Shown here: in pieces, positions 1 to 53,040 of the stretch
Layout of the letters: every line of letters starts with the position of its first letter
How positions within the stretch are numbered: position 1 is the first letter of the stretch
IMG/VR virus record: IMGVR_UViG_3300005805_000085
Span: 1,963 to 65,962 of that record
DNA length: 64,000 nt
Reading direction: 5' to 3' (one strand)
From: an uncultured virus (IMG/VR IMGVR_UViG_3300005805_000085)
Taxonomy: Duplodnaviria > Heunggongvirae > Uroviricota > Caudoviricetes
The notes under the pieces: model-generated
Database searches by the model: none
Told to the model about the DNA's origin: nothing
What the model saw: only the letters and a program-made list of their open reading frames with translations
Position numbers and translations under genes: made by a program

Positions 1-32
1 CTTAGCAAGAACTGTGCCAGGTGCTGGCGCCG

Positions 33-62
33 ATTTTATCATATAAAATCGGCCCGTGTCAA
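33..62 (-). promoter_or_regulatory. Leftward sigma-70 promoter
   Basis: TTGACA-N18-TAAAAT with extended TG, embedded in the palindrome CCGATTTTAT-CAT-ATAAAATCGG. Confidence 0.6.
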
Positions 63-128
63 GCGCAGAATTGTAACAATTTGTAACCGTGGCTTTTTCG
101 CCACAAAGCAAGATTCGTGCCAGGCGTA

Positions 129-147
129 GATGCGAATGATTCTCATT
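129..147. promoter_or_regulatory. Fur-box-like site
   Basis: Reverse complement AATGAGAATCATTCGCATC resembles the proteobacterial Fur box. Confidence 0.65.
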
Positions 148-212
148 CTCACCAAGCAAAATTCGTGCCACTAGCAAAATTCGTGCCACTAGCAAGATTC
201 GTGCCAGGCTAA

Positions 213-260
213 GTTAGTGAGCACTCACTAACCCCACCAAGTTAGTGAGCACTTACTAAC
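213..260. repeat. Two 20-bp operator-like palindromes
   Basis: GTTAGTGAGCACTCACTAAC (213-232) and GTTAGTGAGCACTTACTAAC (241-260). Confidence 0.8.
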
Positions 261-273
261 CTGCAAAGCAGGT

Positions 274-372
274 TGCGCCAGTGCAAAACCTTGTCAAGTG
301 CAAAATCTTGGCCGTGCGCCAGTGCAAAACCTTGCAAGCGCAAAAACTTGGTCTTCTTGCGCCAGTGCAAAA
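274..372. repeat. Three direct repeats TGCGCCAGTGCAAAA at 41-43 bp spacing
   Basis: Copies start at 274, 315 and 358. Confidence 0.85.
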
Positions 373-395
373 GTGGCAAACCGAAAAATCTAGTC

Positions 396-583: not shown

Positions 584-892
584 ATGACTGACAAAGTAAT
601 GAACTATACCCCTGAACAAGTTCAGGAACTGGTCCAGAAGTATCAGCAAGGCGTTAGCGTTGAGCAACTGGCTGAAACTCTTGGCAAGAGCGTGCGTAGT
701 GTGGTTGCTAAACTGAGCCGCGAGGGTGTGTACGTGGCGAAGACTCGGACCCAAAACTCGGCCCGAGTCACCAAAGCTGAGCTGGTCGAGCGCATCGCTC
801 GGGTATGCGATCGTAATAGTGAACAGTTTGAATCGCTGGAAAAAGCAAATCAGGATGTTCTGACCCGCCTGGTCGAAGTGCTCAAAGCCTGA
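584..892 (+). CDS. T5 A2/D3-like small HTH DNA-binding protein
   Basis: YTPEQVQELVQKY...LAETLGKSVRSVVAKLSREGVY; TAAGGA RBS before ATG 584. Confidence 0.65.
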   Translation: MTDKVMNYTPEQVQELVQKYQQGVSVEQLAETLGKSVRSVVAKLSREGVYVAKTRTQNSARVTKAELVERIARVCDRNSEQFESLEKANQDVLTRLVEVLKA

Positions 893-1534: not shown

Positions 1535-1846
1535 TTAGGGTCGGTTATTCTTGGATAATTCCCGTTCTATGACCTCGAGCACACCTTTATTGACCTTTTC
1601 TAGACTTTCTAGGAGTTCAAGGTTCATGTTGAGCAGTAGGGCGATCCGTTCGATGTACTCCGACTTCTTGCGTGGAACCTCACCACGTTTGTTTAGGTAC
1701 TGTTTTTTCTGGTACACCTCGAGCGAGCTGAGCTTGGCAATTATGCTACGTTGTGGCACTTGTAGCTCTTGAGCTAGTTGGTCCACTGAGACACCCTCTC
1801 GGTATCTTTGCACTAGACGGTCAGTAATTTCTTTAGTATATTTCAT
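1535..1846 (-). CDS. Second A2/D3-like HTH protein, paralogue of 584-892
   Basis: MKYTKEITDRLVQRYREGVSVDQLAQEL...RSIIAKLS...ESLEKVN aligns along its length with 584-892. Confidence 0.7.
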   Translation of the reverse strand: MKYTKEITDRLVQRYREGVSVDQLAQELQVPQRSIIAKLSSLEVYQKKQYLNKRGEVPRKKSEYIERIALLLNMNLELLESLEKVNKGVLEVIERELSKNNRP

Positions 1847-1850
1847 GTTG

Positions 1851-2633
1851 TTAGTCGTCCCATGGCATATCTGCGACTTTGACTTGTTTCGGACCCTCAA
1901 CCGCCGCAACCGAAAAAATCTCATCGGGTACTAGGGGTGTGGGCATCCTGTCCCACTGCCAGGGGTCTAAGATTAAGTAGGGTGTTCGTAGCTGTGGGTG
2001 GCAAACCCAGATTTGTGTAAGCATGGTGAGTACTAGTTTAGGCACTTCCCGCCAAGGTGAGTCTAAGCCTGTAAGTTGCCAAGTTGCTAGTGCTGATCTT
2101 TGTTGACCACTTCGTTGACCAGTTTTGATGGTTAAACCTCTGGTACGAACCTCTACGAGTTCATCCGACCCTAAACCGCTCCAGGTAGTATTTTCCTTAG
2201 CCCACCTCAAGCACTCGTAAAGATCTCGACTAATAATCCTGTCTAGGCCTTCCAGCGGCCACTGCTGGTAACCCACACCCCGATCTCGTTTTTGTGCTAG
2301 CATGATTGTGGGAGCTAGGGCGCTCCAATTTACACTCTGGGGGTCACTTTGACGACGAATCAATTTTGAACGGGGAACTCTACACACCAGTCTCCATAAA
2401 CCCAAATCCCAATCGCTGCAGATATTGATACGGAGCGTCTTGGGAATGTCTACCCTACCTTGGTCGTCTAAAATAAGATTCCACCGTTGGTAATGCCCCA
2501 CAATCTGAGGCCATAGCCAGCCTTCCTTAGTGATCAGTTGTTGTTCTGCAACCCAAGCCTCAAGCAGTTTAGGGTCAGTTTGGTTAGCGATTTCGTGGAG
2601 TGGAACTGCTTCCAGCTTATTTAGTTTTTGCAT
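1851..2633 (-). CDS. Hypothetical Trp-rich protein with acidic C-terminal tail (ADMPWDD)
   Basis: 260-aa ORF downstream of promoter 2871-2899. Confidence 0.75.
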   Translation of the reverse strand: MQKLNKLEAVPLHEIANQTDPKLLEAWVAEQQLITKEGWLWPQIVGHYQRWNLILDDQGRVDIPKTLRINICSDWDLGLWRLVCRVPRSKLIRRQSDPQSVNWSALAPTIMLAQKRDRGVGYQQWPLEGLDRIISRDLYECLRWAKENTTWSGLGSDELVEVRTRGLTIKTGQRSGQQRSALATWQLTGLDSPWREVPKLVLTMLTQIWVCHPQLRTPYLILDPWQWDRMPTPLVPDEIFSVAAVEGPKQVKVADMPWDD

Positions 2634-4236: not shown

Positions 4237-4446
4237 CTACTCCTTGTAGTGTGCAAGCATATTAAGTGCCTCTAGCTGACCCCAAGTCAGAGCAAATCTC
4301 TGCCCGTCTAGTTCGCAGTCAAATCCCTCGCCGTTCTGCCATTCTGTCAGGTAGAGCTGCTTGTTCTCGCTTAGATAGCAGTACTTGTCTAGGTCTAGTT
4401 CACGTGTAGTAACTTGGTAGGTTTTAATCACAAAAATATGCCTCAA
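4237..4446 (-). CDS. Hypothetical protein
   Basis: ORF within the operon. Confidence 0.6.
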   Translation of the reverse strand: MRHIFVIKTYQVTTRELDLDKYCYLSENKQLYLTEWQNGEGFDCELDGQRFALTWGQLEALNMLAHYKE

Positions 4447-4737: not shown

Positions 4738-5391
4738 TTATGATTTAATTTTTTGCCTGTAGTATTGAGTACAAGCTAGTTGTACAGCAACTAGGACAGG
4801 CAGTATCCCAACAACCCAACGATCTAGTGCTTGCAGCCAGTTAGCTAAGATTGGCTCATCAAGGATCATTTTGGTAGCTACTAGGTATAACACACCAGCT
4901 CCCCAATATACTAGCCACGGTCTATGCTCTAGGTGTTCTTGAATCCAAGTGGCCCCCCACACAATAATGGGTACACTAATTAGGAGACCTAGGATAATAA
5001 GTAGCCAACTGCCACCACTTGCCCCCGCAATAGCTAGGCTATTGTCTAGACCCATGGTAAAGTCAGCTAGTACAATGGTAGTAATGGCTCCGAACAGTGT
5101 AGTTTTACCCTCAACTGCAGCACTCTCTTGATGTTGGCCTAGCCGCCAAGCAATCCACACCAGTGCAAGTCCGCCTACCAGCCGTAAGCCTGGAATAAGG
5201 AGCAGCCATGCTAAGATAACTACACAGACGAATCGGGCTACCACCGCTCCTACTGTACCCCACAAAATAGCCTTACGCTTTAGGTCTAGTGGCAGGTTAC
5301 GACTAGCTAGTGCAATTACTAGTGCATTTTCACCGCCTAGTACAATGTCGATAAGGATGATGGTGACTAGTGCTAGGAAAAATTCCATCAT
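4738..5391 (-). CDS. TerC-family (YjbE-like) integral membrane protein
   Basis: IILIDIVLGGENALVIALASRNLP, ADFTMGLDNSLAIAGA, GLLISVPIIVWGA. Confidence 0.9.
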   Translation of the reverse strand: MMEFFLALVTIILIDIVLGGENALVIALASRNLPLDLKRKAILWGTVGAVVARFVCVVILAWLLLIPGLRLVGGLALVWIAWRLGQHQESAAVEGKTTLFGAITTIVLADFTMGLDNSLAIAGASGGSWLLIILGLLISVPIIVWGATWIQEHLEHRPWLVYWGAGVLYLVATKMILDEPILANWLQALDRWVVGILPVLVAVQLACTQYYRQKIKS

Positions 5392-7717: not shown

Positions 7718-7917
7718 TATGCTTTACTCCAGGTATGTGCAATCTTAACAAAAACACCAGCAATACACAACAACCAAGCTCCCGTAAACTTTTGTGAATC
7801 CCAGTTTAAGATAATAGTATGGTCAAACATAATTAGTGTCCATAAGTCAACAATACCTATTAGTATGGGCAAGAAAAACAAAAAAGCTATTAAATTAAAT
7901 AGAACATTTTTTACCAC
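7717..7917 (-). CDS. Small membrane protein
   Basis: GTG overlapping the thyX stop; two hydrophobic segments. Confidence 0.5.
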   Translation of the reverse strand: MVKNVLFNLIAFLFFLPILIGIVDLWTLIMFDHTIILNWDSQKFTGAWLLCIAGVFVKIAHTWSKA

Positions 7918-8810
7918 TTTGCTTCTCCTGGAATAAGTTTGCGGTACTGAACCCAACCACAAAAGTTGCCAGACCATAATTGCCCATACCTGTCTTGATG
8001 CGATACACCGATACGTTCTAGAGTATCCCACTGCGTAATAGGAGTAGCCTGATGTTCAACTGGGCTAGCGTGTGCTGGTTTAGATTCTACTAATTGATCA
8101 TAGATACGAATAGCCTTGTCTAGTGAAGTGTCCTGACGGCGATAACTTACTTGTGCACAGCAACTAGCACTAATCTTGATAGCGTCGGCCAGCTTGATCT
8201 CTAGGCCTGTTTGCTCATCAATAAACATTTGAGTATGATTAGCTGCTCGAGTTGTACGAACATAAGGCAGATGCCATTCTTCTGGGTGAAGTGCTTGTGG
8301 CTGCGATTCCTTGTAGAGTATATGCATTTGGTGGGCAAGCTCCTTAAACTCAGGCTGTGCCATCTCATGATCTCGTAGCCAAAAAAAGTTTTCCCATTCT
8401 GTTGCAGTTACTACAGTTTTAACAATCTGAAACGGCTCTGTAAGCCGGTTAGTAATCTGCTTGTGTACATCAAAATCTGCTAGTAACCTACTGTAGCGAA
8501 TTGCGCTATCTCTAGCCTCCATCCAAGTTAACCTAGCATAGTTTTGCATATCTGGCAGTATTTCTTCATCTGCTTGCATCCCTGCTTTATTCTGACCCCA
8601 AACCGCAGGAACCGCAGTATTGTCACGAATATGTTCGTGCATTTTTTGTACAGGAATTGCTCGTGAACTAGCTGTATTGCGCGATAGCATACGGTGAGTA
8701 TTAAACTCAGCTAGGATGAATCTGGGATACTCAATTTCAAATGTAGTAATTCTGGACTTAGTGGGAGTATATACACTGTCCTTGATAATAGTAGCTTTTA
8801 TATTGCTCAT
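7911..8810 (-). CDS. thyX: Flavin-dependent thymidylate synthase
   Basis: AEFNTHRMLSRNTASSRAIP, phage-type ThyX motif; HASPVEHQATP. Confidence 0.9.
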   Translation of the reverse strand: MSNIKATIIKDSVYTPTKSRITTFEIEYPRFILAEFNTHRMLSRNTASSRAIPVQKMHEHIRDNTAVPAVWGQNKAGMQADEEILPDMQNYARLTWMEARDSAIRYSRLLADFDVHKQITNRLTEPFQIVKTVVTATEWENFFWLRDHEMAQPEFKELAHQMHILYKESQPQALHPEEWHLPYVRTTRAANHTQMFIDEQTGLEIKLADAIKISASCCAQVSYRRQDTSLDKAIRIYDQLVESKPAHASPVEHQATPITQWDTLERIGVSHQDRYGQLWSGNFCGWVQYRKLIPGEAKW

Positions 8811-22235: not shown

Positions 22236-22415
22236 ATGGCTTGGGTATGGGTTATACTATTTTCTGTGTTAGGCACTGGCGGCGAGCACGGAACCAGAGG
22301 CGCATACTCTAGCAGAGCGGAGTGCGAACAAGCACTAATCAAACTTAAACTAGACTACGAAACTAAAGGTAAAACTCTAGTTGGTAGTTGTAGTGTTACG
22401 CAAAAGAAAATATAG
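22236..22415 (+). CDS. Small exported protein
   Basis: Hydrophobic N-terminus; YSSRAECEQA...C. Confidence 0.6.
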   Translation: MAWVWVILFSVLGTGGEHGTRGAYSSRAECEQALIKLKLDYETKGKTLVGSCSVTQKKI

Positions 22416-22758
22416 TTGTATGAAGTTAACCCAAAGGTGCTTTGGACGCGGGTTCGACTCCCGCCTGGTCCACCATAGATACATTACACCATTAACGCCA
22501 CGGGGTTATCTAGAGCTGCAGCTCGAAAAGCACACTGTGAGAAGTGCAGATAACGGTAGTGTATCTTTGATGGGCCAGTCATGGTTTCGACAGGGTGCAG
22601 AGTAGGAAAATGGACAACTCGACAATGCAGAAGTCGTAGGGCTGGGACTACCCGGCTAGAGAAGCAAACAAACTAAACGCAAACGATGAAACGTTCGCAT
22701 TAGCCGCCTAAACTCGGCTTAGGGTTCCAGGTTATCCTCGTAACAGAAAACCTGGACT
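22413..22758 (+). ncRNA. ssrA: Circularly permuted (two-piece) tmRNA
   Basis: Acceptor piece ends GGTTCGACTCCCGCCTGGTCCACCA (22475); coding piece starts GGGCCAG (22572) with G3.U70; tag 22679-22711 reads ANDETFALAA*. Confidence 0.92.
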
Positions 22759-22813
22759 TAAATGGCCATTTGGCATTTTTATTAACAATTCTTGCTCAAC
22801 TGAGGAGAATAAG

Positions 22814-51614: not shown

Positions 51615-53040
51615 TCATCTCCTGGTGAAGCCGGTCGCTACGCTGTGAAAGTGCGCGTTGAGCACGTGGATTATCTGGTAGGGTACGATTACGATAAATT
51701 TCCTTGCTAGTATAAAATACAGCGTCTGGTAGGTTAACTTGTTGATACTGATCAAACCCCGGTACTGTACCCATTTGTGCAACTTGCTGTGCTTGTTGCT
51801 GCTGCTGTGGATCTTGCCGAGCGCGCTCCGCGCGCTGGGCTTGAGCGGCTTGGGCTCGACGTTGCTGTTGTGCTGTAGGTTGAGGTGTAATACCGGATAC
51901 AGTTAGGCCTGTACCAAGTTGTGGGCTAGTATTAATTTGAGAAGTAGGACTGGTGGTACTAGTAATACTTGGCACAGTAATTGCTTGCTGCGCTTGAGGG
52001 TTTGCTATTAATACAGTTTCTGCTAGGTTACTACTATCAGTTAAAAAATTTGATTGACTAGGGCTAGAATTAGGAGAAACATAACCGGCACACTGTGGAC
52101 TACTCTGCGAATTAAATTTACACGCATCTGTTACCTGTTTTTCTTTAAAAGCGTTTGCATATCCTGAACAACCAGAATTGTATAGAGGATTTGCTGTGCA
52201 TTGTTGATTGAAATATGCCTGTTGGTACAGTGGACAGGCTGTAGAAAAAAGGGGGTTAGAAGAACATTGTTGATTTAGATATGCTGATTCGTATCCGGGA
52301 CATTCAGGAGAAAACAAAACATTTACCGAGCATTGTTGACTACGATATGCTTGTGCGTATCCCTGACAATTTGGACTGTATAGAAAATTAATATTGCATT
52401 GAGATTGAAAATACGCTTGTTGATAGTTTGGACAGGTTGATGCATAAAGTGGATTCACAGCGCACTCATCAACCACATACATTGCATTTAAAGAAACATT
52501 TCTAACTTGTGGTCCATAATAGCCGGCCCAATACCTATCATCTTTTCCATTAAAACTTACATCAAACCTATCAACAAAATCTAAATTAAATGGACTACCA
52601 TAATTTCTTTTGCCACTTACAGTTTCCCATCCATTTGTTTGATTAAGTGTATAACTATCTTTTTGTTTACTGAATCCAAATTGATCTTTTAAATCAACAG
52701 AAAAAGAAACAAATCCTCTATTAAATTCACTATTCATGTATTGAAAAGAATAGTTGTATCCATAGAGTCTTAGATGACTACCTTGTAGAGTTTCGCGTAA
52801 TCGTATTTCTTGGTTAACAATTTGCTGCGTATAACCAAATAAGATTGTTTGTGTTTGAGGATTGTAAGCTGCGCGATTTCCTCCAGATGTTCCTCCTGGA
52901 GTATAATTACCTGTAACAGTATTTGCCCAATTATTTTGTATTAAATTGGATGTTGTTTGTATATCCTGAGCATTACAAAAGAATGAGAAGAATAGCCAGG
53001 ACGCCAAGCCCAGCACTAACTTTTTGCCAGAAACTTGCAT
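51592..53040 (-). CDS. Secreted protein with ~22-aa Cys repeats
   Basis: Signal peptide; C.xNPL(Y/F)S..C.GY..AY..QQ about six times. Confidence 0.8.
   Translation of the reverse strand: MQVSGKKLVLGLASWLFFSFFCNAQDIQTTSNLIQNNWANTVTGNYTPGGTSGGNRAAYNPQTQTILFGYTQQIVNQEIRLRETLQGSHLRLYGYNYSFQYMNSEFNRGFVSFSVDLKDQFGFSKQKDSYTLNQTNGWETVSGKRNYGSPFNLDFVDRFDVSFNGKDDRYWAGYYGPQVRNVSLNAMYVVDECAVNPLYASTCPNYQQAYFQSQCNINFLYSPNCQGYAQAYRSQQCSVNVLFSPECPGYESAYLNQQCSSNPLFSTACPLYQQAYFNQQCTANPLYNSGCSGYANAFKEKQVTDACKFNSQSSPQCAGYVSPNSSPSQSNFLTDSSNLAETVLIANPQAQQAITVPSITSTTSPTSQINTSPQLGTGLTVSGITPQPTAQQQRRAQAAQAQRAERARQDPQQQQQAQQVAQMGTVPGFDQYQQVNLPDAVFYTSKEIYRNRTLPDNPRAQRALSQRSDRLHQEMIDEQYRR

Follow-up and report, generated by a model that had tools for sequence, protein, structure and literature searches.

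The left end of a 64,000-nucleotide stretch of DNA from an uncultured virus of the Caudoviricetes (IMG/VR record IMGVR_UViG_3300005805_000085), referred to below as the window, raises the question of why a phage would carry a dense group of exact sigma-54-type promoter motifs in a short non-coding tract. A preliminary description of positions 1-380 took this tract for a possible DNA decoy or injection-control region. The answer preferred here is a different one: we consider it quite possible, though somewhat short of probable, that the seven copies of the motif are genuine sites for the host sigma-54 (RpoN) holoenzyme and form a promoter cluster of a type demonstrated experimentally in Pseudomonas phage YuA.

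The motif TGGCAC-N5-TTGCW has six exact matches in the whole window, as compared to a mean of 0.14 in 100 shuffled sequences, none of which reached six. Five of them were listed in the preliminary description and are all present on the minus strand, at positions 4-19, 107-122, 155-170, 173-188, and 191-206; the last three form the 18-bp tandem (155-206) that it also reported. Two more exact copies are located to the left of the window. One, on the minus strand (contig 1891-1905), abuts the terminator of the gene for a GcrA-like protein (A); the other (contig 1948-1963, plus strand) begins 14 nt outside the window and, together with the minus-strand copy at 4-19, from which it is 5 bp away, makes up a convergent palindrome. 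In total, a 278-bp part of the contig holds seven exact copies, including the five of the window. The base following TTGC is T in all five window copies. The site at 107-122 (TGGCACGAATCTTGCT) starts 45 nt from the -35 element of a leftward sigma-70 promoter, P_L, and in many distant relatives the plus-strand copy starts at this same distance. Among the relatives, the commonest gaps are 34 and 45 nt; a fixed helical phase between the motif and P_L was considered and dropped, since gaps of 41, 44, 48, and 49 nt also occur. An isolated exact motif at 51970-51985 (plus strand), inside a minus-strand open reading frame (ORF) of 482 aa, is probably a chance match.

The source contig is linear, viral, and 65,962 bp long, with a completeness of 62% as estimated by CheckV. 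The window corresponds to contig positions 1963-65962; since another 1,962 bp extend to the left, window position 1 is not a genome end. These 1,962 bp contain four plus-strand ORFs, the last of which encodes the GcrA-like helix-turn-helix (HTH) protein A. The phage is a T5-like (Demerecviridae-like) freshwater phage. Its DNA polymerase is closest to that of Vibrio phage Thalassa (Demerecviridae; 48.5% identity). Neither a nucleotide-level match to the contig nor a tblastn match to the GcrA-like protein was found in the collection of cultured phages. Window positions 1-380 represent a non-coding control region between a GcrA-like gene and strong sigma-70 early promoters.

The motif is under selection. 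Its relatives were surveyed in the best 80 of more than 593 viral stretches encoding a relative of a second GcrA-like protein (B, 102 aa; window 584-892, plus strand); these are related contigs, so that the loci counted are not independent. An exact motif was present within 1.3 kb upstream of the GcrA-like gene in 35 of the 80 loci and absent in the other 45. Among 97 matches with the N5 spacing in 681 kb, 83 fell in the 102 kb upstream of GcrA-like genes, and this upstream sequence yielded no match with spacings of N3, N4, N6, or N7. Variants with one mismatch retain the GG and GC. The preliminary description had named loss of the GG-N10-GC spacing in relatives as an outcome that would speak against it; the spacing is strictly kept. 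The spacer itself varies, and the flanking bases fit the extended sigma-54 consensus, YTGGCACGR...TTGCW: in 29 distinct instances, Y was found in 28, the G following CAC in 23, and R in 28.

Eight close relatives (94-97% protein identity) display the same minus-strand arrangement with two to six exact copies and differ in the number of 18-bp units. At the position corresponding to 155-206, seven of them (L001-L007) have two copies and one (L008) has a single copy, so that the copy number is not constant. Between L003 and L006 (about 4383-4430), which are otherwise near-identical, the convergent palindrome of 38 bp (contig 1939-1984; window -23 to 22) is exactly inverted; both orientations, therefore, exist in nature. 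Contigs from a wastewater run revealed variants that skip contig 1880-2013 and 2028-2199, their sequences being joined across L110:1879-2014 and 2027-2200, at window -83 to 52 and 65 to 238; such variants thus lack parts of the array. The other 27 motif-bearing loci contain one or two copies on the plus strand, mostly as the invariant TGGCACGATTCTTGC. Paired plus-strand copies are 25-27 bp apart; their distance from the gene, which is downstream of them, is 480-590 bp (1,225 bp in L014), and in these distant relatives they face the early genes. The relatives that lack the motif possess other short repeat cassettes in the same spot; P_L, the 20-nt repeats, and the rightward promoters, however, are present there too. 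In five near-complete relatives (98-112 kb), the motif was located at the control locus, with two odd-spacer matches 3-4 kb off (G001 and G004).

Similar arrays are not confined to this group. A scan of the viral collection for two motifs on one strand, separated by 0-30 nt, revealed at least 119 further stretches (L120-L238), which form 69 nucleotide clusters; these and the following counts refer to the matches listed. The arrays, such as L215:1964-2251, L199:3661-3779, and L214:55-227, include up to 10 copies in 290 bp, and their start-to-start spacings peak at 26, 36-37, and 41-43 bp. Many units are convergent pairs like that at the left edge of the window; a few matches are coding repeats. 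By ORF calls that are crude throughout the analysis, 87 of the 119 arrays are intergenic. For the 81 usable one-directional arrays, coding in the downstream 1.5 kb was on the array's own strand in 44 cases and on the other strand in 13 (16 ties); for the upstream 1.5 kb, the other strand was the coding one in 46 cases and the array's own strand in nine. In all 36 stretches with a TerL homologue, the array was upstream of the terminase gene, usually by 0.9-1.6 kb. By our reading, these arrays mostly point away from that gene and into an operon, which in L138 contains thymidylate synthase. In most of 22 larger, more complete contigs, all matches occurred in one locus; they were dispersed in G029, G030, and G039. 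Single or paired sites in G030 are located 9-56 nt upstream of helicase, exonuclease, and 866-aa ORFs. Word searches of the literature revealed no description of sigma-54 site arrays in phages.

On the phage side, no enhancer-binding protein (PF00158) was identified in the contig or in five near-complete relatives, and no Sigma54_DBD in the contig or in four relatives. Neither domain was detected above the cut-off in 50 other array-bearing contigs. Only weak matches below the threshold were obtained, one of which, at L157, was read by eye as a Nu1-like small terminase; a phage-encoded activator or sigma-54 was, therefore, rejected, and an activator is absent in recognisable form. A locally encoded partner protein was rejected as well: within 5 kb, none of the ORF families follows the motif outside a single clade. 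The protein families found within 3.5 kb of the listed arrays include terminases, in eight and four clusters, and no other family in more than three.

One set of ten bases, always spaced alike, thus recurs in dozens of phages that are unrelated and have no nearby protein in common. This makes a conserved factor of the host the likeliest reader of the motif, and the sequence itself is that of the sigma-54 consensus. The orientation bias of the arrays and the dispersed gene-proximal sites of some genomes fit promoters. A candidate host lineage is suggested by two further features of the contig. The two-piece (permuted) tmRNA encoded at 22355-22802, within the transfer RNA (tRNA) cluster, is of the betaproteobacterial type (tag ANDETFALAA), and the TerC-family membrane protein encoded at 4738-5391 (minus strand), among the leftward early genes, is about 50% identical to proteins of Rhodoferax, Curvibacter, and further Comamonadaceae; together, these point to the Comamonadaceae. 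Sigma54_DBD is encoded in five of five genomes of this candidate lineage. Each of these genomes (3.9-4.7 Mb) contains 30-41 exact sigma-54 motifs.

Binding by sigma-54 and any transcription from the sites are what we infer from these patterns. In the promoter-cluster reading, the host sigma-54 holoenzyme would dock at the sites as closed complexes, and firing would need an ATPase activator, either a host enhancer-binding protein or an unrecognised phage factor. In the clade of this phage, the copies would have been multiplied by 18-bp slippage and flipped; more distant relatives have one or two copies, oriented toward the early genes. Probably one or two copies are productive, namely the plus-strand copy at the left edge and that at 155-170, which would fire across a palindrome at 132-150. 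The remaining copies would serve as redundant docking sites, and the other palindromes and repeats as operators for regulators of the sigma-70 promoters.

A number of observations weigh against this reading. Six of the seven copies point left, toward the 3' end of a plus-strand gene, and as promoters they would yield antisense RNA. The copies spaced by 18 bp and the convergent copies separated by 5 bp cannot all be occupied or fired together. No enhancer-binding protein was detected in the phage contigs searched, as said above, and no upstream activator site was identified for the motifs. A is the commonest base after TTGC in bacterial sigma-54 promoters. It occurred in none of the 29 distinct instances from the T5-like loci (T in 15, G in eight, and C in six). 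Contigs were compared from three metatranscriptome runs and one doubtful run; those of the RNA runs leave the array uncovered and, as contigs, are unable to reveal transcript starts. Also, 36 of the 119 listed arrays are located upstream of a terminase gene, and the presence of a single array in most genomes would be compatible with a unique cis element as well, for example a packaging signal or an origin.

The sites could, alternatively, be docking places at which sigma-54 or its holoenzyme is held in stable closed complexes that are never fired. As phage DNA replicates, the array would act by titration of sigma-54 or as an insulator or roadblock between divergent sigma-70 promoters, a proposal close to that of the preliminary description. 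Stable inactive binding of this holoenzyme is established, according to PMC4591121. Such a role would agree with the different orientation of the copies between clades, their flipping in place, including the inverted 38-bp palindrome of near-identical relatives, and the lack of an encoded activator. It would also agree with the copy located directly after a stop codon and abutting the terminator, both here and in the distant relative L080. Spacings of 26 and 36-37 bp in the listed arrays correspond to about 2.5 and 3.5 helical turns, which would place neighbours on opposite faces, and seven sites in about 100 phage copies would exceed the 30-41 sites of a candidate-host genome. However, the motif is missing in 45 of the 80 relatives, most distant relatives have one or two copies, too few for titration, and the excess of arrays with the downstream genes on their own strand (44 versus 13) is needless for a pure decoy; the benefit to the phage is hypothetical. 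We regard this alternative as unlikely. With regard to the preliminary description, nothing in the analysis shows titration or anchoring of RpoN-RNA polymerase, Fur, or other regulators, and the decoy reading is not supported by it; in distant relatives and in most listed arrays, the motifs face downstream genes as promoters do. A reader encoded by the phage itself, matching the sigma-54 consensus, is about equally doubtful; given the points against a simple promoter, both alternatives are nonetheless serious competitors of the preferred reading. It could be a GcrA-like HTH repressor or activator here and a small terminase or initiator elsewhere. The convergent pairs are palindromes of 34-36 bp composed of four blocks, which a dimer or tetramer would be expected to need; most genomes have a single array; in this phage, the array has GcrA-like genes on its flanks; and the constant position upstream of the terminase module in the 36 listed loci with TerL, together with the L157 group, whose array lies 154 nt upstream of the Nu1-like ORF, would suit a terminase subunit. 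This proposal has to explain how the same 10 specified bases and exact spacing came to be read in 69 listed clusters that have only terminases in common in more than three. GcrA-like genes occur in three of the 50 other array-bearing contigs, yet in all 80 T5-like loci, 45 of which lack the motif. Outside a single clade, the motif is accompanied by no particular ORF family within 5 kb; the contigs searched yielded no Sigma54_DBD-like protein; and the half-site is asymmetric, with spacer positions of the palindromes that are not complementary.

Very unlikely, in our estimate, is a unique cis site for phage DNA transactions, that is, a packaging signal, a replication origin, or an injection stop or anchor of the T5 type, although the array does form one locus per genome, some listed arrays lie 18-330 nt from contig ends, and the position between the late module and the early genes resembles that of the T5 terminal repeat. 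The preliminary description had drawn the parallel with that repeat. The part of it that stands is the same relative genome position and a homologue of the T5 dmp gene (pre-early 5'-deoxyribonucleotidase; 32-37% identity over about 90 aa), which was located about 2.5 kb upstream of the array in two relatives (G001:C1:72996-73244 and G002:C1:80258-80548). The T5 repeats carry arrays of host DnaA boxes, proposed (Davison, bioRxiv 10.1101/866236) to stop injection, but no DnaA box (TTATCCACA, up to one mismatch) was detected from window -1839 to 1011. Further, tblastn revealed neither T5 A1 nor A2, no sigma-54 motif is present in the first 12 kb of T5, copy number ranges from one to seven, and sites are dispersed over the genome in G029, G030, and G039. 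Absence of the motif in 45 of 80 loci, which have other cassettes there and share the rest of the region, argues against an essential role in injection control. The idea of an injection stop, which would draw on position and on analogy with the T5 DnaA boxes, is thus weakened by the patchy distribution. No genome ends were revealed by contig alignments, and a 126-bp end repeat of G002 is an assembly overlap.

Comparison with known systems helps to place the promoter-cluster reading. YuA, a Yuavirus of Pseudomonas, uses host sigma-54, as is proposed for the present phage, without having its own RNA polymerase, and its record annotates three active '-24/-12 consensus' promoters. These are not exact-consensus sites, in contrast to the seven perfect ones within 278 bp here; a relaxed sigma-54 pattern gave one match in 33.7 kb of YuA, outside the annotated promoter features. 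The YuA promoters reportedly are single and spread through the structural and lysis region, whereas the array examined here occupies the early control region of a T5-like phage and is mostly antisense to the neighbouring gene. The tandem early promoters A1-A3 of phage T7 and the early promoters of T5 are likewise closely spaced host-polymerase promoters heading the early region, but they depend on sigma-70 and need no activator. The untranslated repeat regions in the left terminal repeat of T5 are, like the tract of this phage, non-coding, rich in repeats and palindromes, and situated between strong early promoters of divergent orientation in a genome of the Demerecviridae, and they carry consensus sites for a host DNA-binding protein. 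The host factor is DnaA in T5 and, by consensus, would be sigma-54 here, and the sigma-54 motif occurs in 35 of 80 relatives whereas the T5 repeats are near-universal: those with paired DnaA boxes are kept in nearly all T5-like phages (bioRxiv 10.1101/866236). Non-productive and intragenic sigma-54 sites of bacterial chromosomes share with the array the possibility of inactive holoenzyme binding regardless of gene orientation (PMC4591121), but they are scattered singles and not a dense array.

Development of YuA is reported to depend on host sigma-54 (PMC5053324; bioRxiv 10.1101/2023.10.13.562163), and YuA is cited as an example of what is described as a rare habit among phages, the use of this host factor (PMC5053324). 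Similar clusters in many unrelated uncultivated phages suggest that such use is commoner than recognised. If the arrays are functional, sigma-54 would be used by many uncultivated phage lineages, including relatives of T5, and the dense tandem and convergent perfect sites, with no phage activator, would depart from the textbook scheme of one promoter, enhancer, and activator. They would also provide a simple sequence marker for predicting rpoN-carrying hosts. The questions raised are what opens the complexes, whether several holoenzymes sit side by side, and whether the early programme is tied to host stress or nutrient signals. A bolder version, which we hold to be improbable, is that the arrays load several holoenzymes, which are then set off by a phage factor that has escaped recognition or by an activator of the host that infection itself triggers, such as the phage-shock activator. 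This would represent an undescribed sigma-54-driven early strategy, in which the Fur-like and direct-repeat boxes of this phage would act as a sensor of the host nutrient state.

The remainder of the control tract is rich in other elements. From the left, the stop codon and terminator of gene A are followed by a sigma-54 site, the convergent pair, P_L, and a TTGTAAC repeat; then by a sigma-54 site, an 8-3-8 palindrome, the three tandem sigma-54 sites, and two 20-nt palindromes; and finally by five 20-nt repeats, a rightward promoter, a 22-codon ORF (recognised by eye), a second rightward promoter, and gene B. All of the sigma-70 promoters but that at 396-424 were predicted by a consensus scan. 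P_L (62-33, minus strand) reads TTGACA-18-TAAAAT (11/12), and a regular expression recovered its signature, GCGCC...TGTCAA, from most of the 80 related loci. The P_L module is repeated 615 bp farther to the left, and another leftward promoter was predicted at 1417-1388 (minus strand). Rightward promoters, all on the plus strand, were predicted at 396-424 (TTGCTT-17-TATAAT) and, by the scan, at 527-555 and 920-948; they belong to the three copies of a 52-nt promoter family (384-435, 515-566, and 908-959).

The other sequence elements named in the preliminary description were all found again, some in a slightly different form. The TGTAAC direct repeat with a 10-bp period extends to TTGTAAC (71-77 and 81-87), is located just upstream of the P_L -35 element, and is kept in seven of seven close sequences and, as GTTACAA-N3-GTTACAA, in more distant relatives. 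The GTGGC-N6-GCCAC palindrome (89-104) is kept only in the window and L001 among seven aligned sequences and, therefore, is probably not functional. The two TetR-operator-like palindromes correspond to 20-nt palindromes of the form GTTAGTGAGCAC(T/C)(T/C)ACTAAC (213-232 and 241-260), whose core, AGTGAGCACTCACT, recurs beside P_L in distant relatives. The three TGCGCCAGTGCAAAA repeats, at 274, 315, and 358, are part of a family of five 20-nt repeats, TGCGCCAGTGCAAAACCTTG (274-377, plus strand), which resemble a sigma-70 promoter spacer (family D4) and are present also in relatives without the sigma-54 motif. Both the 20-nt palindromes and the 20-nt repeats turn up at varied places in relatives and are probably operators of phage regulators.

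The Fur box is a 19-bp 9-1-9 palindrome, GATAATGATAATCATTATC. The Fur-like box of the preliminary description is the 8-3-8 palindrome GCGAATGA-N3-TCATTCGC at 132-150, which agrees in 15 of 19 positions with this consensus and is the sole site in the window with 15 or more. With the same consensus, nine matches of 14 or more were counted in the window versus a mean of 3.2 in 30 Markov simulations. The GCGAATGA-N3-TCATTCGC type of box was present in about 22 of the 80 related loci, and the outer arms of this conserved form are not Fur-like. By our own counting, transcription from the neighbouring sigma-54 site would start at the palindrome or just upstream of it, in L009 as well as here; such a position would be suitable for an operator. 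Labels such as Fur, OmpR, and TetR denote resemblance only. No integration host factor (IHF) consensus was found in the array.

Three paralogous GcrA-like HTH proteins flank the control region. The gene for protein A (contig 1560-1886, plus strand) ends 76 nt left of the window, gene B was located above, and that for paralogue C is on the minus strand at 1535-1924. Matches to the Pfam GcrA family had E-values of 2.3e-6 (protein B) and 5.4e-5, and gene B is covered by RNA contigs of the metatranscriptome runs. A link to GcrA and GANTC methylation was considered and rejected: GANTC occurs in several motif spacers and in the palindrome, with three occurrences in the tract, yet the contig contains 170 versus 238 expected, and no PF01555 methyltransferase was detected in five genomes.

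Other genes of the contig include those for a family-A DNA polymerase, an SbcC-like nuclease, helicases, ribonucleotide reductase, and tail-fibre-like proteins, as well as 20 tRNAs. A ThyX-like protein is encoded at 7911-8810 (minus strand), among the leftward early genes. Two perfect 20-nt palindromes, TGTGATGTTATAACATCACA, were observed at contig 1321-1364 (window -641 to -598), just downstream of the second leftward promoter module and ahead of a bidirectional terminator; they may represent a pair of operators or else a short hairpin RNA. The stretch 1076-1218, between the rightward promoter at 920-948 and the leftward one at 1417-1388, had no Rfam match, and no fold signal was obtained for the 149-nt stretch 1076-1224 (z-scores of 1.58 and 0.18). 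A contig from a riverine metatranscriptome (depth 40) spans exactly positions 1076-1218; the sequencing adapters present at either end of it are suggestive of a discrete RNA about 145 nt long.

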